The notes beneath the pieces are model-generated. The model worked only from the letters and a program-made list of their open reading frames with translations, was not told the DNA's origin and did no database searches. Below are positions 1,228-56,412 of a DNA stretch of 64,000 bases, piece after piece. A program made the position numbers and the translations under genes. The first letter of the stretch is position 1. Every line of letters starts with the position of its first letter. This DNA comes from Candidatus Omnitrophota bacterium (GTDB lineage: Bacteria; Omnitrophota; Gorgyraeia; Gygaellales; Profunditerraquicolaceae): NCBI GenBank assembly GCA_026387335.1, contig JAPLLX010000001.1:16489-80488 (forward strand), read 5' to 3'.

Positions 1228-1246
1228 AAAGTAAGAAATAGACAAA

Positions 1247-1283
1247 AAATCCCAGGCATGAAATTTATGCTTGGGATTTTTTG
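1247..1283 (+). terminator. rho-independent terminator after the second csp gene
   Basis: 13-bp stem aaatcccaggcat/atgcttgggattt (one G:U), 7-nt loop, T-run. Confidence 0.6.
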
Positions 1284-1287
1284 TTTA

Positions 1288-1315
1288 TTGAGATTTTTAA
1301 TTTTAAGGTTATAAT
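1288..1315 (+). promoter_or_regulatory. sigma70-like promoter TTGAGA-N16-TATAAT upstream of the acetolactate decarboxylase gene
   Basis: TTGAGA 1288-1293, perfect TATAAT 1310-1315, 16-nt spacer. Confidence 0.45.
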
Positions 1316-3061: not shown

Positions 3062-4534
3062 ATGGAAAAAATAAAATTTGATTTTAATAATATGTTCAGC
3101 GCGAGTATCGGCAGCGCGCATGGCGTAAGCCAGCAGGATATTGATGAGATACTTCCGGAGGCGCGACTTTGCGCAGGGCACTTAAAGAAGATTATTGCCA
3201 ACCCTCAAGCAAGAGTCAATTTAGGCCTTGAGTGGGTGGTTCTTTTTAAGCAGGATAAAAAGGAGATCGCCAAGCTCCAGAAACTGGGGAAAGAGATCGC
3301 TAAAAAATATGAAAATGTCATTTCCTTGGGAATCGGTGGTTCATATTTAGGCCTGAAAGCCGCGCAGGATGCCTTGTGCGCGCCTTATTACAATGAATTT
3401 AAGCCCTTAAGAAAGAGATCGCCGCGGTTTTATTTGGAAGGTAATAATATGGATCCGGATACACTGCAGGTTTTATTAAAACACCTTTTACCTAAAAAAA
3501 CATTCGTCATTATTATCTCTAAATCCGGAGAAACCACAGAATCTAAGGCAGCCTTTGCGTTAGTTGAAGCTTGGCTGAAAAAAGGAGTAGGTAAGAGATA
3601 CGGCCGGCAGATTTTGGCGATTACCGATCCCCAATCCGGTACTTTGCGGGAAAAGGTAAAGCGTGAGCAAAAGAAAGATGCTTTAAGCTTTCGCGCGTTT
3701 CCGATTTTAAAAGGCGTAGGCGGAAGGTTCTCAGAGTTTAATATGGGTTTGATCCACCTGGCAATCGCGGGCGTAAATATCCAAGAACTTTTTTCGGGTG
3801 TTAAGGAGATGTTTGATCGCTGCAGTCAGGATGATATATTGAAGAACCCGGCGTATATGTACGCTTTATTGCATACAATTCTCTACCGTAAAAAGGCAAA
3901 ATCGTTAGCTATATTAATGCCCTTTTCGCAAACGCTTAAATCCACGGCAGATTGGTATGTGCAGCTTTTAGCGGAAAGCTTAGGTAAAAAATACCACCGT
4001 AAGATCGAGGTAGATAATGATGGAGTAGAAAATTGGCTGGCGGATGAAGGATCCTTATTTAGTAAGGGCAGGACTCCCATATCTGCCGCCGGAACCAACG
4101 ATCTGCATTCTATTCAGCAAAATAACGTTGAAGGAGAAGATAATAAAGTCCTTACTTTTATTCGGGTTGAGCATTTTAGGACAGATTTAAAAATACCGGG
4201 TAAAGGGGATCTGCTTTCCGGGAAAAGTTTTAGTGCGCTTATGCATTTGGCCCAGGAGGCAACAGAGTGGGCCTTGGCCAGCGAAAACCGGCCGAACTGT
4301 ACGATTATCATGCCTAGAGTATCCGCGTATAACTGGGGAGCGCTTTTATTTTTCTTTGAAATGGCAACAGCCTTTGAAGGCGAGCTGCTCAATATCAACG
4401 CTTTTGACCAGCCCGGAGTAGAAGGTTATAAAAATTATATGTATTATAAATTAGGCAAACCCGGTATCGCTCAAGATATAGCCAACGAAATCAAAAATCA
4501 CCCTCTTATCAAAGACCCCAAATACATCCTTTAA
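3062..4534 (+). CDS. pgi: glucose-6-phosphate isomerase
   Basis: ISLGIGGSYLGLKAA, IIISKSGETTES, GGRFSEFNMGL correspond to PGI conserved blocks (GIGGS, SKTFTT-like, GGRYS). Confidence 0.8.
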   Translation: MEKIKFDFNNMFSASIGSAHGVSQQDIDEILPEARLCAGHLKKIIANPQARVNLGLEWVVLFKQDKKEIAKLQKLGKEIAKKYENVISLGIGGSYLGLKAAQDALCAPYYNEFKPLRKRSPRFYLEGNNMDPDTLQVLLKHLLPKKTFVIIISKSGETTESKAAFALVEAWLKKGVGKRYGRQILAITDPQSGTLREKVKREQKKDALSFRAFPILKGVGGRFSEFNMGLIHLAIAGVNIQELFSGVKEMFDRCSQDDILKNPAYMYALLHTILYRKKAKSLAILMPFSQTLKSTADWYVQLLAESLGKKYHRKIEVDNDGVENWLADEGSLFSKGRTPISAAGTNDLHSIQQNNVEGEDNKVLTFIRVEHFRTDLKIPGKGDLLSGKSFSALMHLAQEATEWALASENRPNCTIIMPRVSAYNWGALLFFFEMATAFEGELLNINAFDQPGVEGYKNYMYYKLGKPGIAQDIANEIKNHPLIKDPKYIL

Positions 4535-4594
4535 TCAATGGCAATGTAGACAGTCTACGTAACTTACTGTAAATAATATTGTTACATAACAAAT

Positions 4595-5551
4595 ATGCTT
4601 AAAGTCGGCAATCTAAAATTAAAATCGAATCTTATTCTTGCGCCAATGGCGGGAGTTAGCGACTTGCCTTTTCGCTTGCTTAACCGGAAATTCGGGGCGG
4701 AACTGGCTTTTGTAGAGATGATTAATTGCCGCTCTATAAGCCATAAAAGTAAGCGGACGCAAAGCATGCTTAGCTCAACTCCTCAAGACAGGCCTTTAGG
4801 CTTGCAACTGTTAGGATGCGAAGATAAATACATCCTTAAGGCTCTGGATGTTTTAAAGAAATATAAATTTGAACTTATTGATTTTAACGCCGCCTGTCCG
4901 GCAAAAAAAGTTGTCCGCAGGCAAGAGGGAGCAGGACTATTAAAAGATCCCAAGAAATTAAAGAAGATACTTAAGCTAGTGGTGAAAAATTCCGCGGTCC
5001 CGGTTACGGTAAAGATCCGCACTGGCTGGGATAAGGATAATATTAACGCTAAAGAAGTAGCTCTTTACGCCCAGGATGCCGGAGTCAACGGTTTATTCAT
5101 CCACGGAAGGACTAAAACCCAGGGGTACAGCGGTAGTGTTGATTATAAGGTGATCCGGGAAGTGAAGAAGGCCTTAAGCATTCCGGTTATCGCCAGCGGA
5201 GATATATTGTCAGCGCAGTTAGCCAAAAAAATGTTTGATGAGACAGGTTGCGATGGCCTGGCTATTGCCCGCGGCGCGCTGGGAAACCCCTGGATATTTA
5301 AAGAGATAAAAGAATACTTAAATACAGGTAAGATTATCCCCAAGCCTGGCGAAGCTAAAATAGTTAAAATTATGCTTGAGCATTTAAACGCTTCAATAGC
5401 TTTTTATGGGGAGAGAAACGGCGTGATAATATTTCGCAAGTTCTTCGGTTGGTACACGAAAGGCTTTCGCCGGATACGTCCTTTAAGAGAAAAATCCTCC
5501 CGGGCCAAGAATAAAGAAGAAATGACGGCTATAATTGAGGGATGCAGGTAG
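4595..5551 (+). CDS. dusB: tRNA-dihydrouridine synthase
   Basis: LAPMAGVSDLPFRLL...DFNAACP...VTVKIRTGWD: Dus family TIM-barrel motifs. Confidence 0.85.
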   Translation: MLKVGNLKLKSNLILAPMAGVSDLPFRLLNRKFGAELAFVEMINCRSISHKSKRTQSMLSSTPQDRPLGLQLLGCEDKYILKALDVLKKYKFELIDFNAACPAKKVVRRQEGAGLLKDPKKLKKILKLVVKNSAVPVTVKIRTGWDKDNINAKEVALYAQDAGVNGLFIHGRTKTQGYSGSVDYKVIREVKKALSIPVIASGDILSAQLAKKMFDETGCDGLAIARGALGNPWIFKEIKEYLNTGKIIPKPGEAKIVKIMLEHLNASIAFYGERNGVIIFRKFFGWYTKGFRRIRPLREKSSRAKNKEEMTAIIEGCR

Positions 5552-5705: not shown

Positions 5706-5783
5706 TAGGGACGGTTCTCAACTCCAAGCTAAAGCGTCCCCTGCCAGGGGACACTTTAAGATTAGCTTGAGAACCGTCCCTAA
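5706..5783 (+). repeat. 78-bp nested-palindrome intergenic repeat element, copy 1 (17-bp outer inverted repeat AGGGACGGTTCTCAA... plus inner GCGTCCCC/GGGGACAC hairpin)
   Basis: Near-identical copies at 16118-16195 and 36151-36227. The outer arms TAGGGACGGTTCTCAAC / GCTTGAGAACCGTCCCTAA are reverse complements. Confidence 0.75.
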
Positions 5784-5804
5784 TTCATAGTATAATATTT
5801 AATC

Positions 5805-13543: not shown

Positions 13544-14791
13544 ATGCATGAAAACAGAGTAGTAATCACGGGGTTAGGGATAATTTCTTCGGTAGGCAAT
13601 GATGTCGCTACTTTTTGGCAGGCATTAAAGGAGGGGAAGAGCGGCGTAGGGCCATTAACCACCTTTGACGCTAGCAAGTTTGATTCGCGCGTTGCCGGAG
13701 AAGTAAAAGGTTTTAACCCGGCTTTAGGCGATATAGATTTTAAGGAAGCCCGGCGCACCGCTAGGTTTGTCCAATATGCCTTGGTTGCGGCTAAGCAGGC
13801 TATAGTTTCTTCAGGTTTGGATCTGGATAAGGGGAATAAAGAGAGGTTTGGAGTATTAATCGGTTCAGGTATAGGCAGCCTGCATACAATAGAAGAGGAG
13901 CATAAGATCTTCTTAACTAAAGGGCCATCGCGCCTGTCGCCTTTTCTAATTCCCATGTTGATTGTTAATGAAGCCAGCGGTTTAGTGGCGATTAAATATG
14001 GTTTTAAAGGCCCTAATTCCTGCGTGGCTACTGCTTGCGCTTCCGGCTCGCATGCCATAGGGGATGCGTTCAGGATCATAGAGCGCGGGGATGCTGATGT
14101 AATGATTACCGGAGGGACGGAAAGCTGTATTGTGGCTACGTCTCTGGGAGGATTCTGCGCCTTAAAGGCGCTTTCTAAGAAAAATGATTTTCCGCAAAAG
14201 GCATCCCGGCCGTTTGACAAAGAGCGGGATGGCTTTGTTATGGCCGAAGGTTGCGGTTTAGTGGTTCTGGAGAGTTTAGAGCATGCCAAAAAACGCAATG
14301 CTCCTATCATCGCTGAAATTATCGGTTTTGGGATGACCTGCGACGCGTATCATATAACCGCTCCTGACCCTGAAGGCGAAGGTGCCGGACGGGCGATGAA
14401 ATTGGCTTTGGCCGATGCTAGACTTAATCCCGAAGACGTGGATTATATTAACGCGCACGGTACTTCCACTAAACTTAATGATAAGATTGAGACCTTTTCC
14501 ATGAAGAGGGCTTTTGGAGCTCATGCCAAGAAAGTTATGGTTTCTTCAACTAAATCCATGATCGGCCATGCCTTGGGCGCTGCCGGTGGAATGGAATTTG
14601 TGGTTTGTTGTTTGAGTATCAGAGACGGCATAGTGCATCCCACGATAAACTATGAACATCCTGATCCTGAATGTGATCTGGATTATGTCCCCAATGTTTC
14701 CCGCAAGGCCGAGGTCAAAGTTTGTATGTCCAATTCTTTAGGTTTTGGCGGACACAATGCCTCCCTCATTGTAAAGAAATTCGATAAATAG
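13544..14791 (+). CDS. fabF: 3-oxoacyl-ACP synthase II
   Basis: Active-site Cys (ATACASGSHAIG), HAT/NAHGTST and GHxLGAAG motifs. 415 aa. Confidence 0.9.
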   Translation: MHENRVVITGLGIISSVGNDVATFWQALKEGKSGVGPLTTFDASKFDSRVAGEVKGFNPALGDIDFKEARRTARFVQYALVAAKQAIVSSGLDLDKGNKERFGVLIGSGIGSLHTIEEEHKIFLTKGPSRLSPFLIPMLIVNEASGLVAIKYGFKGPNSCVATACASGSHAIGDAFRIIERGDADVMITGGTESCIVATSLGGFCALKALSKKNDFPQKASRPFDKERDGFVMAEGCGLVVLESLEHAKKRNAPIIAEIIGFGMTCDAYHITAPDPEGEGAGRAMKLALADARLNPEDVDYINAHGTSTKLNDKIETFSMKRAFGAHAKKVMVSSTKSMIGHALGAAGGMEFVVCCLSIRDGIVHPTINYEHPDPECDLDYVPNVSRKAEVKVCMSNSLGFGGHNASLIVKKFDK

Positions 14792-14848
14792 GGACAGCGA
14801 CCATTTTTCTTGGTCGCATAGATAGAAAAATGGTCGCTGTCCCTATTT
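14786..14848 (+). repeat. perfect 23-bp inverted repeat (AAATAGGGACAGCGACCATTTTT / AAAAATGGTCGCTGTCCCTATTT) with 17-nt loop and downstream T-run; probable intrinsic terminator / REP-like element; the fabF TAG stop lies inside the left arm
   Basis: Arms at 14786-14808 and 14826-14848 are exact reverse complements, followed by ttatttt. Shares the TAGGGAC(A/G)G start with the 78-bp repeat family. Confidence 0.6.
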
Positions 14849-14851
14849 ATT

Positions 14852-16120
14852 TTGGATAATATGCCTTATACAATCGCAGAAAAAATATTAATGGCGCATA
14901 CCGGTAAGACCGATATTAAGCCGGGAGAATTTATTGAGGCCAATGTTGACATTGCCCTCGGAAATGATATTACCGCGCCTTTAGCGATCGAAGAATTTAA
15001 GAAATCCGGATTTAAGAACGTATTTGATAAAAACAAGATCGTTCTTGTGCCGGACCATTTTGCGCCGGCAAAAGATTTAAGGAGCGCGAATCAGTGTAAG
15101 ATATTAAGTAATTTTGCTGCTGAGCAGAAGATAAAAAATTATTTTGAAGTCGGCTGCATGGGGATAGAGCATGCGCTTCTGCCGGAGTTGGGTTTAGTCG
15201 GCCCGGGAGACCTGGTTATCGGCGCGGATTCACATACGTGTACCTACGGCGCGTTAGGGGCGTATTCCACGGGTATAGGTTCCACGGATTTAGCCCGCGC
15301 GTTTATTGACGGAAAATGCTGGTTTAAAGTTCCGGCTTCAGTTAAATTCATTTATAACGGCAAGCTGAATAAATGGGTCGGCGGCAAAGACCTGATTCTT
15401 TTTACTATCGGTAAAATCGGAGTGGACGGGGCATTGTATCAAGCTATGGAATTTTCCGGGCCGGTAATCCGGAAATTGAGCATGGATGACCGGTTTTCCA
15501 TGAGCAATATGGCTATTGAGGCCGGAGCGCGCGCAGGGATAATTGAGCCGGATGAGATCACCAAAAAATACGTCTCCCAATTTAAGCGGAAGTTTAAATT
15601 TTATCAATCCGATAGCGCTGCCCAATACGCTAAAATTTACGAGTGGGATGTGACGGATCTAGAGCCGCAGGTAGCTTGTCCGCATTTACCGAGCAATGTT
15701 CAGCCGGTAAGCGACTTAAAAGATGTTAAGCTGGATCAGGTGGTTATTGGTTCCTGCACTAACGGCAGGATCTCGGATTTAAGGGCCAGCGCCAAAATCC
15801 TTAAAGGGAAGAAAGTTAAACCCGGCTTAAGATTGATTGTAATTCCGGCTACTCAGAAGATTTATTTAGAGGCGGTGAAAGAGGGATTAGCCGAAATATT
15901 TGTTAAAGCCGGCGCAGTTTTCTCTACGCCGACCTGCGGGCCCTGCCTCGGAGGGCATATGGGTATTTTAACTGAAGGAGAAGTCGCCCTGGCCACTACT
16001 AACCGTAATTTTATCGGCAGAATGGGTAGTCCTAAGAGTTTTGTATATTTATCTAACCCTGTCGTGGCAGCAGCTTCGGCGATTACAGGCAGGATCACGC
16101 ATCCTAAGGAGATAAATTAG
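14852..16120 (+). CDS. leuC: 3-isopropylmalate dehydratase large subunit (short, archaeal-type LeuC)
   Basis: Aconitase-family Cys ligands (GSCTNGR, CGPCLG). 422 aa, followed by leuD. Confidence 0.9.
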   Translation: MDNMPYTIAEKILMAHTGKTDIKPGEFIEANVDIALGNDITAPLAIEEFKKSGFKNVFDKNKIVLVPDHFAPAKDLRSANQCKILSNFAAEQKIKNYFEVGCMGIEHALLPELGLVGPGDLVIGADSHTCTYGALGAYSTGIGSTDLARAFIDGKCWFKVPASVKFIYNGKLNKWVGGKDLILFTIGKIGVDGALYQAMEFSGPVIRKLSMDDRFSMSNMAIEAGARAGIIEPDEITKKYVSQFKRKFKFYQSDSAAQYAKIYEWDVTDLEPQVACPHLPSNVQPVSDLKDVKLDQVVIGSCTNGRISDLRASAKILKGKKVKPGLRLIVIPATQKIYLEAVKEGLAEIFVKAGAVFSTPTCGPCLGGHMGILTEGEVALATTNRNFIGRMGSPKSFVYLSNPVVAAASAITGRITHPKEIN

Positions 16121-16195
16121 GGACGGTTCTCAAGCCAAAGCAAAAGCGTCCCCGTTAAGGGGACAGTTTAAGATTAGCTTGAGAACCGTCCCTAA
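16118..16195 (+). repeat. 78-bp nested-palindrome repeat element, copy 2; its first 3 nt (TAG) are the leuC stop codon
   Basis: TAGGGACGGTTCTCAAGCCAAAGCAAAAGCGTCCCCGTTAAGGGGACAGTTTAAGATTAGCTTGAGAACCGTCCCTAA. The 17-bp outer arms are perfect reverse complements. Confidence 0.75.
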
Positions 16196-16203
16196 AAAAG
16201 AAT

Positions 16204-16695
16204 ATGATCATAAAAGGTAAAGTGCATAAATTCGGGGATGACATAAATACCGATGATATCATCTCGGCGAAATATCTTGTTTCTACTGACGCCAAAGAGT
16301 TGGGTGCGCATTGCCTGGAAGCAATAGCTCCGGATTTTGTGAAGAAGGTTACACCCGGAGATATAATCGTGGCGGGGAATAATTTTGGCTGCGGTTCGTC
16401 CCGCGAGCACGCGCCGGTAGCGATCAAAGGAGCGGGGATTCAGGCGGTTATTGCCAAAAGTTTTGCCGCGATTTTCTTCAGGAATGCCATAAATATAGGG
16501 TTACCCTTCCTAGAATCAGATGACGCGACAAAGATAAAAGAAGGGGATTTGATTGAAATAGACTTAGACGGTGGTATAATAAAAAACCTGACCCAAAATG
16601 TTACCTATAAGACTCAAGAATTCCCTGAATTTCTGCAGGCGCTGGTAAAAGAGGGCGGTTTGCTGAATTGGATCAAGGCAAAAAAGGAGCGCTAG
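16204..16695 (+). CDS. leuD: 3-isopropylmalate dehydratase small subunit
   Basis: KFGDDINTDDIISAKYL, GCGSSREHA: LeuD/aconitase swivel-domain motifs. Confidence 0.9.
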   Translation: MIIKGKVHKFGDDINTDDIISAKYLVSTDAKELGAHCLEAIAPDFVKKVTPGDIIVAGNNFGCGSSREHAPVAIKGAGIQAVIAKSFAAIFFRNAINIGLPFLESDDATKIKEGDLIEIDLDGGIIKNLTQNVTYKTQEFPEFLQALVKEGGLLNWIKAKKER

Positions 16696-25340: not shown

Positions 25341-26560
25341 AGTTGGAAGAAGTTTTTGCAAGTTATAAAGAAAATATAATGCCGACTTATACCAAGATGC
25401 CCTTGGTATTTGTTAAGGGGAAAGGTTCTAAACTTTGGGATATCCATAACAAGGTATATCTGGATTTTTTCCCGGGTTGGGGGGTTTGTAACCTCGGGCA
25501 TTGCCATCCGAAAGTAATGCAGGCAGTGCGGGACCAGATTTCCAAGTTAATTTTTATACCGAATAACTACTACCATATCCCTCAGGCAAAATTAGCCAAA
25601 GAGATGGTCTATTGGTCGTATCCGGCAAAGGTATTCTTTTGTAATTCCGGCGCGGAGGCAAATGAGGGAGCGATTAAGTTTGTCCGAAAGTTCGGCTCCT
25701 CATCTGAACTCAGCGCCGATGGCGAGCAGAGGCGAGCCACCGGGCAGGGCAGGTATGAAATAATAACTTTTGAAAATTCTTTCCACGGAAGGACATTGGC
25801 TACGGTTACCGCGACCGGACAGAAAAAATACCAGGAAGGCTTTAGTCCTTTACCGGAAGGTTTTAAAACCGTTAAGTTTAATGATATAGAAGTCCTGAAA
25901 CAGGCGGTTAGCGATAAAACAATTGCCATAATGTTAGAGCTTGTGCAGGGCGAAGGCGGGATAAATGTCGCCTCTAAAGATTTTGTTCTGGCTTTAAGGA
26001 AATTATGCGCTGAAAAAAAATTGCTGCTTATTGTGGATGAGGTTCAGACCGGAATGGGCAGGACCGGAAAATTATTCGCTTATCAGCATTACGGAATGAC
26101 TCCGGATATAATGACTTTAGCTAAGTCATTAGGCGGAGGCCTGCCAATCGGCGCGATGGTGGTAAAAAAAGAGATCGCGGATACCTTAGGGCCCGGAATG
26201 CACGCTTCCACTTTTGGGGGTGGTCCGGTTATCGCCAGGGCGGCTCTAGCCGTCTTTAAGGCGATACAAAAAGAAAAAATGCTTAAGAACGCTAATTTAA
26301 TGGGAGAATATTTATTCACGAAGCTAAATGCCCTGAAAGAAAAGCATACTATAATAAAAGAAATAAGGGGTTTGGGTTTAATGGTCGGAGTGGAATTGAA
26401 TATTGCAGGGAAAAATATAATCGAGAAGTGTATTGAAAAGGGGCTCCTGATTAATTGTACCCACGAAAATGTCTTAAGGCTTATGCCGGCGTTAAATGTG
26501 ACCAAGAAAGATATTGATAAGGCAATGGGTATATTAAAAAGCGTATTGGAGAGAGCATGA
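25337..26560 (+). CDS. argD: acetylornithine aminotransferase
   Basis: Class III aminotransferase: DEVQTGMGRTGK, MTLAKSLGGGLPIGA. Confidence 0.85.
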   Translation: MKLEEVFASYKENIMPTYTKMPLVFVKGKGSKLWDIHNKVYLDFFPGWGVCNLGHCHPKVMQAVRDQISKLIFIPNNYYHIPQAKLAKEMVYWSYPAKVFFCNSGAEANEGAIKFVRKFGSSSELSADGEQRRATGQGRYEIITFENSFHGRTLATVTATGQKKYQEGFSPLPEGFKTVKFNDIEVLKQAVSDKTIAIMLELVQGEGGINVASKDFVLALRKLCAEKKLLLIVDEVQTGMGRTGKLFAYQHYGMTPDIMTLAKSLGGGLPIGAMVVKKEIADTLGPGMHASTFGGGPVIARAALAVFKAIQKEKMLKNANLMGEYLFTKLNALKEKHTIIKEIRGLGLMVGVELNIAGKNIIEKCIEKGLLINCTHENVLRLMPALNVTKKDIDKAMGILKSVLERA

Positions 26561-32122: not shown

Positions 32123-32979
32123 TTGCTATTGTAACGCCATTTAGAAATGGCAAAGTTGATGAAAAGAAACTGCGGGAGCTCATTGATTTTCAGATTAAAA
32201 ACGGTTCCAGAGGGATTGTGCCTTGCGGGACAACCGGGGAGTCGGCTACTTTGTCTTTTGAGGAACATGAACGGGTAATTGAAATTACTATTGAGCAGGT
32301 CAATAAAAGAGTTCCGGTTATCGCCGGGACAGGCTCTAATTCTACGCAAGAGGCTATAATGTTAACTAAACAGGCGGCTAGTTCCGGAGCAGACGCGTCG
32401 TTACAGGTCTCTCCGTATTATAACCGTCCGACCCAAAAGGGCCTGTATGAACATTTTAAGGCCGTCGCGGATTCAGTTAAAATCCCGATCATTCTTTATA
32501 ATATTGCTGGTAGGACCGGGGTTAATATTGAGCCGGAGACAATCGCGAAGCTAGCTAATGATTGCAAAAATATCGTGGCAGTAAAAGAGGCATCGGGAAA
32601 TTTGGAGCAGATGTCGCGGATAAAAGCGCTCTGTCCCCCAAATTTCCAACTTACTTCCGGAGATGACGGACTGACGCTTCCGGTATTAAGTATCGGCGGA
32701 GTGGGGATAATCTCGGTAGTAGCCAATATTGTGCCGGCAGATGTGGCGAATTTAGTCAGCGCGTTTGAAAAAGGGGATATTAAGCAAGCGCAAAGCCTGC
32801 ATTATAAATTACTGCCGTTAGTCAAAGCCATTTTTATTGAAACTAATCCTATTCCGGTTAAGACCGCGTTGGGATTAATGGGTATGTGTGAGCCGGATTT
32901 ACGTCTACCGATGTGCGCGATGTCGGCTGATAATCTGGAGAAACTTAAAAAAGCCTTAAGGGATTACAGGCTTCTCTAA
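32104..32979 (+). CDS. dapA: 4-hydroxy-tetrahydrodipicolinate synthase
   Basis: GSIVAIVTPF, GTTGES, active-site Lys in VAVKEASG. Confidence 0.9.
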   Translation: MFKGSIVAIVTPFRNGKVDEKKLRELIDFQIKNGSRGIVPCGTTGESATLSFEEHERVIEITIEQVNKRVPVIAGTGSNSTQEAIMLTKQAASSGADASLQVSPYYNRPTQKGLYEHFKAVADSVKIPIILYNIAGRTGVNIEPETIAKLANDCKNIVAVKEASGNLEQMSRIKALCPPNFQLTSGDDGLTLPVLSIGGVGIISVVANIVPADVANLVSAFEKGDIKQAQSLHYKLLPLVKAIFIETNPIPVKTALGLMGMCEPDLRLPMCAMSADNLEKLKKALRDYRLL

Positions 32980-32995
32980 AAAAGAGGAGAAAATA

Positions 32996-35322: not shown

Positions 35323-36203
35323 AGATAATAAAAGCGCCGGATAAGTTGTTTAAAGATCTTAAAAAGTTTAAAATTTCCGGCAAGTCCATTGGTTTTGTCC
35401 CGACTATGGGCGCTTTACATGCCGGGCATTTAAGTTTAATTGCCCAAGCGCGCAAAGAGAATAAAATCGTGGTTGTAAGCATATTCGTAAACCCCAAGCA
35501 ATTCGGCCCTCAAGAAGACTTAAAGGTTTATCCCCGTCCGCTAAAAAAAGACCTGTTACTCTGTAAAAAAGAAAAAGTTGATTATGTTTTCCTTCCCGGA
35601 GCAAATGCTCTGTACGCCGAGGGTTTTTCCACTTATGTAGATGTTGAGGGTTTAAGCGCAGTGCTTTGTGGAAAGTCCCGCCCGGGACATTTTCGCGGCG
35701 TGGCCACGATAGTAACGAAGTTATTTAACCTTGTCCAACCGGATGTTGCTTATTTCGGGCAGAAAGACGCGCAACAGGCAAGCATCATCAAAAAAATGAC
35801 AAAAGACTTAAACTTTCCGGTTAAAATAAAAATTATGCCTACTCTGCGTGAAAAAGACGGTTTGGCCATGAGTTCAAGGAATGCGTATCTGGGGAAACAG
35901 GAGAGGAAAGATGCCTTGGTGTTATCCCGCGCGTTAAACTTAGCTAAAGTTTTAATCAGGGGAGGGGCTAAGGATACGGTTAGGATTATTAGCCGGATGA
36001 AACAGTTGATCAGCAAGAATAAAAACGCAAAGCTTGATTATATCGCTATTGTTGATTCAGAAAACCTAAAACCTCTTAAAATAATTTCCGGTAATTATTT
36101 GATTGCTTTAGCGCTAAATATTAAAAAGGTGCGTTTAATAGATAATTTTCAGGGACGGTTCTCAACTCAAAGCAAAAGTGTCCCCAATATGGGGACACTT
36201 TAA
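35319..36203 (+). CDS. panC: pantoate--beta-alanine ligase; the last ~17 codons are read from the 78-bp repeat
   Basis: FVPTMGALHAGHLSLI HxGH motif. 294 aa ORF ends inside repeat copy 3. Confidence 0.85.
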   Translation: MKIIKAPDKLFKDLKKFKISGKSIGFVPTMGALHAGHLSLIAQARKENKIVVVSIFVNPKQFGPQEDLKVYPRPLKKDLLLCKKEKVDYVFLPGANALYAEGFSTYVDVEGLSAVLCGKSRPGHFRGVATIVTKLFNLVQPDVAYFGQKDAQQASIIKKMTKDLNFPVKIKIMPTLREKDGLAMSSRNAYLGKQERKDALVLSRALNLAKVLIRGGAKDTVRIISRMKQLISKNKNAKLDYIAIVDSENLKPLKIISGNYLIALALNIKKVRLIDNFQGRFSTQSKSVPNMGTL

Positions 36204-36227
36204 GATTGGCTTGAGAACCGTCCCTAA
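36151..36227 (+). repeat. 78-bp nested-palindrome repeat element, copy 3 (overlaps panC 3' end)
   Basis: AGGGACGGTTCTCAACTCAAAGCAAAAGTGTCCCCAATATGGGGACACTTTAAGATTGGCTTGAGAACCGTCCCTAA. Inner 11-bp stem is perfect here (AAAGTGTCCCC/GGGGACACTTT). Confidence 0.75.
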
Positions 36228-55794: not shown

Positions 55795-56378
55795 TGCCTC
55801 TTTATTCCCGGAAATCAATCACCCTTATAGAATTATTAATTGCGATGGTTTTGCTGGCGGTAATAATCTTAGCTATTAATAATGTGAATGTCTTCAGCCG
55901 TTATCATTTTATCTCTACTGACCGCCGGGCAAAAATCCAGAATGACGCCTCCCGCTGCCTTGAGCATATAACCAAATATGCCTCTCAGGCAATAGGCAAT
56001 GAGGCTGTTTTCGGAGGGGCCTCTGCCGTATATGCCGGCACTAATGTCCTGTCTTTTTTTATGGATGTCAACGCTAATGGTTTAAGGGATACGGCGGGCG
56101 AGGATTATTGGGTTGGTTACAGGCTCAATAATTCAACTTATCAACTTGGCTATTGTAGCCATTGTAGCGACTATTCTTGTTCGACTTGTAGCAGCGCTAT
56201 AGAATACTTGGCTAATGATATAACTGTTTTTTCCGCTACTAATAATGGCAATTACGTGAACGCGGATATCACTGCTTGTTGGAACCCCGCGGGAACTATA
56301 GCGGCCTGCAATACTCCGGATAACCCCAGCGTTACAATGAATTCCAGTATCCACTTACCCTCTGTCGCCACCAATTAA
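55794..56378 (+). CDS. minor pilin / pseudopilin-like protein with Cys cluster (CSHCSDYSCSTC)
   Basis: RKS|ITLIELLIAMVLLAVII prepilin-like N-terminus with Ser at -1. 194 aa. Confidence 0.5.
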   Translation: MPLYSRKSITLIELLIAMVLLAVIILAINNVNVFSRYHFISTDRRAKIQNDASRCLEHITKYASQAIGNEAVFGGASAVYAGTNVLSFFMDVNANGLRDTAGEDYWVGYRLNNSTYQLGYCSHCSDYSCSTCSSAIEYLANDITVFSATNNGNYVNADITACWNPAGTIAACNTPDNPSVTMNSSIHLPSVATN

Positions 56379-56412
56379 ATAGGGACAGCGACCATTAATA
56401 TTGCCCCTATTT
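56377..56412 (+). repeat. degenerate/truncated copy of the 23-bp TAGGGACAGCGACCATT inverted-repeat element
   Basis: AAATAGGGACAGCGACCATT matches 20/20 of the left arm at 14786. Remnant right arm ttgcccctattt. Confidence 0.4.

Follow-up and report, generated by a model that had tools for sequence, protein, structure and literature searches.

The 64,000-nt stretch of Omnitrophota DNA analyzed here (the window) raises the question of what three near-identical hairpins at gene 3' ends are, and how they came to lie where one gene stops and the next begins. It is very probable that the three sequences are non-autonomous, REPIN-like mobile repeats belonging to a RAYT/TIRYT-type system. All three copies claimed by the sequence-only reading are present, in one shared orientation, with the third beginning at 36150 (Table 1). 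The identity of more than 90% attributed to them holds when the hypervariable 5-nt loop is set aside (92 to 93%) but drops to 87 to 89% in pairwise comparison over the full 78 nt, the loops of copies 1, 2 and 3 being entirely unlike (TGCCA, GTTAA and AATAT). The outer inverted repeat, described as a uniform and perfect 17 bp, is perfect over 15 to 18 bp, varying by copy. The inner stem is indeed perfect in copy 3 and carries one mismatch in copy 1, as had been claimed, and it carries two in copy 2. The window contains the 15-mer AGGGACGGTTCTCAA six times and no more, namely as the two arms of each of the three copies, and the number of matches expected by chance with up to three mismatches is 0.96. 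When folded as RNA the copies reach -46 to -52 kcal/mol, with z scores of -8 to -11 relative to shuffled controls; both strands fold far better than the shuffles, and the antisense strand folds slightly better than the sense strand. As DNA, whole copies fold with -27 to -30 kcal/mol, and the individual units as single-stranded DNA fold weakly (-4 to -9 kcal/mol).

Table 1. Repeat copies, related palindromes, empty sites and a promoter-like site in the window.
Feature	Coordinates	Strand	Description
Copy 1 of doublet element	5706..5783	+	left unit 5706-5741 (TAGGGACGGTTCTCAA...GCGTCCCC); loop 5742-5746, TGCCA; right unit 5747-5783 (GGGGACAC...TTGAGAACCGTCCCTAA)
Copy 2 of doublet element	16118..16195	+	opens with TAG, the stop codon of leuC; leuD start at 16204
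Copy 3 of doublet element	36150..36227	+	36150-36200 are the last 17 PanC codons; stop 36201-36203; aspartate dehydrogenase start 36234
Second palindromic family, copy	14784..14850		perfect 27-nt arms, ATAAATAGGGACAGCGACCATTTTTCT; between the fabF stop (TAA, 14789-14791) and leuC
Second palindromic family, single arm (half copy)	56373..56400	+	AATTAAATAGGGACAGCGACCATTAAT; upstream of a tRNA gene
Empty site	32977..32995	+	junction TAA/AAAAGAGGAG..ATG without element; filled in L217 (L217:1057-1133; 96.6% identical) and L142
Empty site	26525..26560	+	overlapping genes (ATGA) without element; filled in L195 (L195:9434-9510; 95% identical)
Promoter-like site	5767..5796	+	TTGAGA (-35, in right arm of copy 1), 18-nt spacer, TATAAT in the flank; just upstream of recG

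The flanking genes named by the sequence-only reading were confirmed for all three copies, these being the genes for DusB and RecG, LeuC and LeuD, and PanC and aspartate dehydrogenase. Copy 1 has the longer spacer, lying 154 nt 3' of the dusB stop codon and 22 nt 5' of the recG start. The leuD start is found 9 nt past copy 2 and is without a Shine-Dalgarno-like motif. In copy 3 the final 17 residues of PanC (QGRFSTQSKSVPNMGTL) are encoded by the first 51 nt, and the PanC stop codon follows; the profile match of PanC (294 residues) extends to residue 277, and the start of the aspartate dehydrogenase gene is found 7 nt past the element. The window is syntenic, at approximately 74% nucleotide identity, with two Omnitrophota MAGs (L081 and L089), and three metagenome contigs (L155, L185 and L217) are nearly identical to it and carry its three copies. 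Copy 1 has a near-identical copy in L155 and a same-orientation orthologue in L081, where the flanks are 74% identical. Identical copies of copy 2 and copy 3 are present in L185 and L217, respectively, and the junction of copy 3 is also occupied in L089 (inverted), L135, L150, L157, L203 and L238.

Stable G+C-rich hairpins at gene 3' ends could be transcription terminators or attenuators between genes, and outside Omnitrophota convergent gene pairs contain a modest excess of the related repeats (20 of 88 sites, versus 15% of background gene pairs). We nevertheless regard this explanation as extremely improbable. None of the three window copies is followed by a T-run, as had already been pointed out; copy 2 separates leuC from leuD, which encode subunits needing co-expression, and does so immediately before the leuD start; and the 13-nt core of the repeat, GGGGACGGTTCTC, is kept across phyla, which is not a property of terminators. 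The promoter-like site of copy 1 matches the consensus at 11 of 12 positions, which is a consensus match only, and the TTGAGA-N18-TATAAT arrangement before recG is repeated in L081. The -35-like hexamer that copy 1 and its orthologues place upstream of recG is a possible co-option. A general role of the TTGAGA arm as an outward promoter was rejected because only copy 1 and its orthologues fit, the start codon being too near elsewhere.

The three copies are members of a large repeat family. One genome per species was scanned with the pattern GGGACGGTTCTC-N40-60-GAGAACCGTCCC, giving at least 118 loci, and a stricter scan of metagenomes gave at least 120; both scans demanded exact arms, so that arm divergence is underestimated. 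The fetched loci contained 145 distinct elements, and 134 Omnitrophota-type copies were aligned. Common to these 134 copies is an architecture of outer arm, partly mismatched middle, near-invariant inner GTCCC/GGGAC stem and variable loop, and the conservation of the inner stem is a genuine observation because the search pattern did not impose it. The Omnitrophota element is a head-to-head doublet in which two inverted units of approximately 36 nt, YAGGGACGGTTCTCAA-N10-16-GTCCCC, are separated by a variable loop of 3 to 7 nt. The units begin YAGGGAC, are preceded by variable bases that are mostly AAT or AAC, and are without a 5' GT[AG]G tetranucleotide. The upstream end of the element is CA in 45% of cases, and at the gene-downstream end CCCTA is followed by A, giving TAA, in 65%. 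There are many dispersed extragenic copies (three in 64 kb of the window; 145 in the fetched loci), nearly all of them inverted doublets with a few single units, and when all fetched DNA was searched with a profile, degenerate copies proved few but several isolated half units were recovered. The second palindromic family in the window (Table 1) has the terminal TAGGGAC...GTCCCTA in common with the main family. Only two matches to the repeat were detected in viral contigs, and the repeat is therefore not phage-borne. A plasmid collection searched with copy 3 gave one chance match of 29 nt only, and a full-text search of the literature for the core sequence returned only an unrelated C. elegans primer.

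The origin of the family is indicated by a locus in which the doublet is interrupted by a gene. It had been claimed that no transposase is nearby, which is correct for the 64-kb window; a cognate Y1 transposase exists, however, in the lineage. In locus L189 the left and right units are separated by a 161-aa ORF in place of the loop. This ORF matches the Pfam Y1_Tnp domain (E 2.9e-19), and its sole PDB match is the E. coli TnpA-REP (4ER8, E 0.004). Among NCBIfam models it scores best with NF047646, REP-associated tyrosine transposase, matched over its full length with 78.3 bits (cut-off 80), whereas the IS200 model scores 24.7 bits; the full-length NF047646 scores span 69 to 78 bits, just below the 80-bit cut-off. 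The ORF possesses an HUH motif (HVH) and a Y---NP motif, the latter being the tyrosine motif of class 2 of Quentin et al. (PMC6006769). A protein search from the L189 ORF found 432 homologues at E ≤1e-10; nearly all of the 120 listed are 156 to 162 aa long, and those among them with an NCBI name are from Omnitrophota MAGs. Each Y1 protein cluster is represented on one to seven contigs. Many of the transposase-carrying contigs are only approximately 1 kb long.

Five homologues were picked by protein similarity and for long contigs only, and their flanks were then fetched. Each of the five genes has YAGGGACGGTTCTCAA...GTGTCCCC on its upstream side and GGGGACAC...TTGAGAACCGTCCCTR on its downstream side, where the unit overlaps the transposase stop codon. 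Together with L189, the two units flank one Y1/HUH gene of approximately 158 aa in six of six related genomes, at one conserved chromosomal site where the gene is divergent from the adjoining mnmG/gidA. Since the same two units flank the gene, the element is a transposase locus with the gene swapped for a few bases. On sequence grounds, the 78-nt elements are non-autonomous doublets of the terminal repeats of a transposase, in a REPIN/RAYT arrangement. The suggestion that they resemble REP/BIME or MITE-like elements was therefore of the right kind, because they are doublets of inverted units that flank a RAYT-like Y1 gene in related genomes.

It could be argued instead that the elements are ordinary DDE-type MITEs, for example IS630/Tc1-like with TA duplication, and that the Y1 gene is merely a frequent insertion target. 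The long terminal inverted repeats would suit such an origin, as would the element ends, which are usually TA...TA or CA...TA, and the cleanest filled/empty pair can be read with a TAA or TA duplication or with none. However, CA at 45% of upstream ends is too frequent for a decayed TA duplication, and no recurrent DDE transposase was found near the elements in approximately 1.7 Mb of fetched loci. Clustering of the ORFs around the first 118 loci revealed no dominant transposase, one three-locus cluster being the Y1 gene, and the nearby element pairs in L028, L080 and L096 enclose ordinary genes. In all six genomes the Y1 gene occupies one conserved site and is enclosed precisely by a left and a right unit, the latter overlapping its stop codon; such an arrangement is that of an autonomous or parent element and not of chance insertions. 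A DDE-type origin is consequently very improbable.

Near-identical genomes differ in which junctions carry a copy, and this speaks for mobility. The window has two empty junctions at which relatives carry an element (Table 1), and the element in L195 supplies a new C-terminus to the upstream gene. Other filled and empty junctions have differing flanking bases (L180, L146 and L145 versus L171; L147 and L228 versus L138), which suggests independent events. L089 carries its copy at the panC junction in the opposite orientation to copy 3 of the window, and one further junction holds a main-family element in L141 and a second-family member, TAGGGACAGCGACCATT..., in L216. Neither a target duplication nor a target motif is clear in the filled/empty pairs that were compared. 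The repeat family is thus apparently mobile, and from these comparisons we infer gain or loss at each presence/absence site. Where copies are orthologous, they are approximately 95% identical outside the loop, versus 74% for the flanking genes, and this is not expected of a purely selfish, decaying element; purifying selection, gene conversion among copies or their repeated replacement would be required.

The position of the copies relative to genes was assessed with crude ORF calls at the loci (longest ORFs, earliest start codon). Although 117 of the 127 elements with callable neighbors lie between co-directional ORFs, this share equals the background because 92% of adjacent gene pairs in these genomes are co-directional. 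The distances are more telling. For most elements the distance to the upstream stop codon is -3 to +10 nt, and the downstream start is found 6 to 25 nt past the element. In 13 co-directional junctions, that of copy 2 after leuC included, the upstream gene ends with the TAG of TAGGGAC as its stop codon, and approximately 28 ORFs end within the element. Junctions with ≤40 nt of other spacer hold 82% of the elements (median 13 nt); gaps of this size make up only 5.3% of element-free intergenic nucleotides but 70% of element-free junctions, and the elements are therefore distributed per junction and not per nucleotide. Of the 46 genes that start ≤10 nt past an element, 41 are without a Shine-Dalgarno-like motif. 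The excess conservation of the copies, together with this distribution per junction, could result from selection, gene conversion, repeated re-insertion at a favored target, or a combination of these.

The alternative that these observations bring forward is an intercistronic RNA element selected by the host, giving protection from 3' exonucleases, a processing site or translational coupling, with mobility being incidental or ancient. The tight spacing of stop and start codons around the stem foot, the concentration of copies in short junctions, the scarcity of Shine-Dalgarno-like motifs in the close downstream genes, the excess of copies in gene orientation, the conservation of orthologous copies beyond their flanks and the very stable RNA folds all agree with such a role, and the distribution per junction could equally reflect a host function. 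The tests for selection at the RNA level gave a different picture. The sequence-only reading had proposed selection for structure rather than sequence, but the variable stem positions of the 134 aligned copies do not covary: at the pair 30-54, for example, there are 36 GC, 33 CG, 32 CC and 22 GG combinations, and compensatory changes number zero. Stem mismatches on the sense strand, where an RNA signature was sought, consist of 194 G·U and 198 A·C and are without asymmetry, and it is the antisense strand that folds slightly better. At the gathering threshold no Rfam 15 family was found over the elements, and relaxing the threshold brought up nothing but generic hairpin models of microRNA precursors, well under their cut-offs. 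The presence of both orientations at one junction, the absence of copies from the same-gene junctions of close relatives and the identity of the units with the terminal repeats of a transposase gene likewise count against a host-selected RNA, which we judge to be unlikely. The palindrome looks like conserved sequence, with protein-recognition sites in both arms, and not like a maintained RNA helix. A role in RNA stabilization or processing may be a by-product, but nothing in these data requires it.

All three window copies are in the same orientation as the flanking genes, as had been claimed, but this cannot be extended to a rule for the family, because about 22% of the confidently oriented copies are inverted. 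The orientation relative to genes among confidently oriented copies is 63:18, or approximately 78% the same as the genes, and orientation is uncertain for about 30% of all copies because the element is nearly symmetric. GC skew is positive across the window, in the same direction as the genes. Single-stranded DNA is the substrate of HUH transposases in this superfamily, and insertion of IS608 is coupled to the lagging-strand template. The orientation bias and the positive GC skew fit strand-specific insertion by a single-stranded-DNA transposase, for which a role of RNA would not be needed.

The repeat core is not confined to Omnitrophota. Outside this phylum the scan matches resolve into a sharply bounded 13-mer, gGGGACGGTTCTc, with approximately 1.7 to 1.9 bits per position inside and near zero immediately outside. 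The core GGGGACGGTTCTC is common to the Omnitrophota elements and to repeats that flank homologous transposases in Bacillota. In the other phyla it sits within lineage-specific short inverted repeats, often in tandem arrays with a 20- to 22-nt period in which n direct copies are followed by n inverted copies; the array of the Micropruina locus L094 has up to 8 + 8 cores. Core matches are found in Clostridia, Bacilli (including the cultured Mesobacillus, Neobacillus and Halobacillus), Actinomycetota, Bacteroidales and others. The Bacillota loci L042, L048 and L049 encode transposase homologues of approximately 250 aa, each flanked by inverted cores, and four of four loci picked by protein (L246 to L249) have GGGGACGGTYC-type cores ≤230 nt from the gene. 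This protein family is large, with 6,490 proteins at E ≤1e-20, and no helix-turn-helix was detected by Pfam at E ≤0.1 in the extension of approximately 100 aa that the Bacillota homologues possess.

Among described systems the TIRtrons are closely similar. Di Nocera et al. (2013; PMC3733652) found RAYT-like genes that are flanked by long inverted repeats and not by GTAG REPs, and named them TIRtrons and TIRYTs. GGGGWSAS is present in many of the TIR repeats, whose spacing from the gene is similar; some genomes contain dispersed families of single, dimeric and clustered copies, the families being described as "moderately abundant" and present in few genomes (PMC3733652). Quentin et al. (2018; PMC6006769) regard their TnpA-Y1 subclass 2.1 as the probable counterpart of the TIRYTs; this subclass is without canonical REPs and has a C-terminal helix-turn-helix extension (Bac_DnaA_C, HTH_23 or HTH_28). 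In Omnitrophota there is likewise a RAYT-like Y1/HUH gene within long inverted repeats without a GTAG head, the 3' end of the gene and one of the repeats overlap, copies are dispersed and the transposase gene is apparently of low copy number. The arrangement is GTGTCCCC upstream and GGGGACAC/GGGGACAG at the stop codon; the gene-proximal GGGGACAC/GGGGACAG matches GGGGWSAS exactly, and the outer GGGGACGG at seven of eight positions. Unlike subclass 2.1, the Omnitrophota proteins are 156 to 161 aa long and consist of the Y1_Tnp domain only, without a helix-turn-helix extension. Unlike the TIR families, the Omnitrophota repeats are very abundant and almost all doublets, their copies are inside operons at stop-start junctions, and the conserved motif is a longer one, the 13-mer GGGGACGGTTCTC, found from Bacillota to Omnitrophota.

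The REP/REPIN-RAYT systems of Pseudomonas and Enterobacteria (PMC2817692, Nunvar 2010; PMC3116915, Bertels and Rainey 2011; PMC5581495, Bertels 2017) resemble the Omnitrophota system in other respects. Both have inverted short imperfect palindromes in doublets that form a long hairpin, non-autonomous copies that persist at orthologous sites, and an apparently single-copy, unit-flanked Y1 gene at a conserved position, consistent with vertical inheritance. The Omnitrophota units differ in being without a GT[AG]G foot, in folding weakly as individual units and in belonging to another host phylum, and their copies lie between co-transcribed cistrons and not mainly after operon ends. By these sequence features the Omnitrophota system is one of the known REP/REPIN-type repeat systems, and it is unusual in its stop-to-start location. 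The CGTC-tagged REPs (PMC3733652) were considered and rejected, because in the Omnitrophota element CGTC is paired inside the stem and is not an unpaired head, and because those families are without a transposase.

Several other palindromic elements are comparable in size or in location. ERIC/IRU and Correia (nemis) elements are MITE-like imperfect palindromes that are co-transcribed with flanking genes and can alter mRNA stability and create promoters. To our knowledge no transposase has been established for them, or a DDE enzyme with TA duplication is suspected. We take them to share with the present element a length of approximately 70 to 150 bp, a long imperfect palindrome, transcribed intergenic sites, insertion in either orientation and occasional overlap with ORF ends; they presumably have no sequence in common with it and are not confined to stop-start junctions. 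An integron attC site, suggested by the resemblance of TCTCAAC...GTTGAGA to R''/R', was rejected since the AAC is not conserved (CTCAA[C/G/A]) and the flanks are syntenic housekeeping genes. We know of no convincing likeness of the element to tRNA, tmRNA, rRNA or domain V of group II introns. Rickettsia palindromic elements (RPE) and intragenic REPs (PMC3733652) likewise become coding without destroying the gene. Comparable coding use is evident here in the 17 C-terminal residues gained by PanC and in the TAG stop codons of 13 junctions, with the difference that only gene 3' ends are affected, no in-frame internal insertions having been seen.

We propose a model in which the units containing GGGAC, folded into hairpins in single-stranded form, probably while the DNA is being replicated, would be recognized by a single-copy Y1 transposase. 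The transposase would then cut and rejoin the units, thereby moving gene-less doublets in trans. Copies persist almost only at the stop-start junctions of co-directional genes, and this position makes them part of the operon transcripts, as hairpins of high stability. They might be tolerated there because the closed hairpin would hold stop and start codons close together and so preserve translational coupling, although this last step is speculative. An E. coli REP within approximately 15 nt of a stop codon can reportedly stall terminating ribosomes and trigger tmRNA tagging, as Liang, Rudd and Deutscher are said to have found in 2015, and effects on the upstream protein are therefore also plausible here. 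It is conceivable, but in our estimation doubtful, that the hairpins have been taken over as a translational device by which a terminating ribosome could cross the closed hairpin to the next cistron, as a bacterial counterpart of ribosome shunting. In that case the vertically inherited transposase would have persisted with its repeats as a partly domesticated, long-lived system whose 13-nt core has been preserved from Bacillota to Omnitrophota. The geometry is shunt-like, with the stop codon 1 to 9 nt before the stem foot or inside the stem and a start codon without a Shine-Dalgarno motif 6 to 10 nt past the foot.

REPIN/RAYT-type systems have been studied almost only in Proteobacteria, and the repeats described here would represent a large and apparently active one in the uncultivated Omnitrophota, the genomes of which are compact and strongly co-directional. 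The 13-nt core GGGGACGGTTCTC is tied to one Y1 clade across distant phyla and is a candidate for the recognition sequence of the TIRYTs. For genome annotation it is relevant that the copies alter gene ends, by providing stop codons and C-terminal tails, and that they probably break assemblies. The geometry of stop codon, hairpin and start codon provides many natural cases in which downstream translation has to proceed past a hairpin of -50 kcal/mol.

A second family of palindromic repeats, of the form (A)ATAGGGACAGCGACCATT...AATGGTCGCTGTCCCTAT(T), was found in the window and in three loci from elsewhere, L216, L169 and L132. It shares with the main family of ~78-nt palindromic doublets the terminal TAGGGAC/GTCCCTA, and its members, like those of the main family, are placed directly 3' of stop codons, as with fabF in the window. 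At one junction, a second-family member is found in L216 where L141, an Omnitrophota-type contig, has a main-family element.

The setting of these repeats is a strongly co-directional one. All gene-like long ORFs across window positions 1-64000 lie on the plus strand. Each of the eight 8-kb bins shows a positive GC skew, between 0.08 and 0.19. Of the adjacent gene pairs in related contigs, 92% are co-directional, and at 38% of the junctions the genes overlap or abut.

The right arm of copy 1 of the main family supplies the TTGAGA of a sigma-70-like promoter match upstream of recG, followed by an 18-nt spacer and TATAAT. The same TTGAGA-N18-TATAAT arrangement is present in L155, a near-identical metagenome contig, and in the syntenic Omnitrophota MAG locus L081, the latter from a genome of only 74% identity. 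Copy 1 itself varies between the two near-identical genomes: one stem position is C in the window and T in L155, a difference that repairs the sole inner-stem mismatch but is a single event of no statistical weight, and one loop base also differs. Elsewhere in the window, an inverted repeat bordered on both sides by A and T runs resembles an ordinary bidirectional terminator and has no relation to the repeat family.

Coordinates of repeats, promoter-like site and Y1 transposase-like genes (local to each locus)
Feature	Locus	Position	Remarks
Second-family repeat	window	14784-14850	after fabF TAA
Second-family repeat	window	56373-56400	
Second-family repeats	L216	512-570, 3567-3625, 4812-4870	
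Second-family repeat	L169	1915-1970	
Second-family repeat	L132	508-590	
Main-family copy 1	window	5706-5783	
Main-family copy 1	L155	1558-1634	
Sigma-70-like promoter match	window	5767-5796	just upstream of recG; 11/12 consensus
Inverted repeat, 26 nt	window	1237-1289	AATAGACAAAAAATCCCAGGCATGAA / TTTATGCTTGGGATTTTTTGTTTATT; 88% complementary
Direct-then-inverted array	L094	4509-4931	
Y1 transposase	L141	3780-4463	227 aa
Y1_Tnp-like gene	L172	5128-6114	
Y1_Tnp-like gene	L165	~4194-5240	minus strand

Symmetric arrays represent another repeat arrangement. In L094, a Micropruina MAG, a 22-nt unit (GGGGACGGTTCTC and a spacer) is repeated up to eight times in direct orientation and then eight times in inverted orientation at a period of 22-30 nt; direct-then-inverted arrays also occur in L021, L085, L054 and L098.

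Among the listed homologues of the transposase gene flanked by main-family units, many lie on contigs of only ~0.7-2 kb, the pattern predicted if the flanking repeats cause assemblies to break. Other Y1-like genes were also encountered. L172 and L165 encode Y1_Tnp-like proteins of 328-348 aa with substituted HUH histidines (TESHLL) and a long charged C-terminal part; upstream of both genes is a conserved ~110-nt leader ending in a terminator-like hairpin, CCCCGGG...CCGGGGTTTTTTT, which may be a regulatory RNA. The L141 contig encodes a distinct Y1 transposase with an HYH motif. The inverted repeats on its two sides are of a different type and do start with GTAG (GTAGACAGTCTACGTAACCC), and therefore two transposase/repeat systems may coexist in the Omnitrophota.
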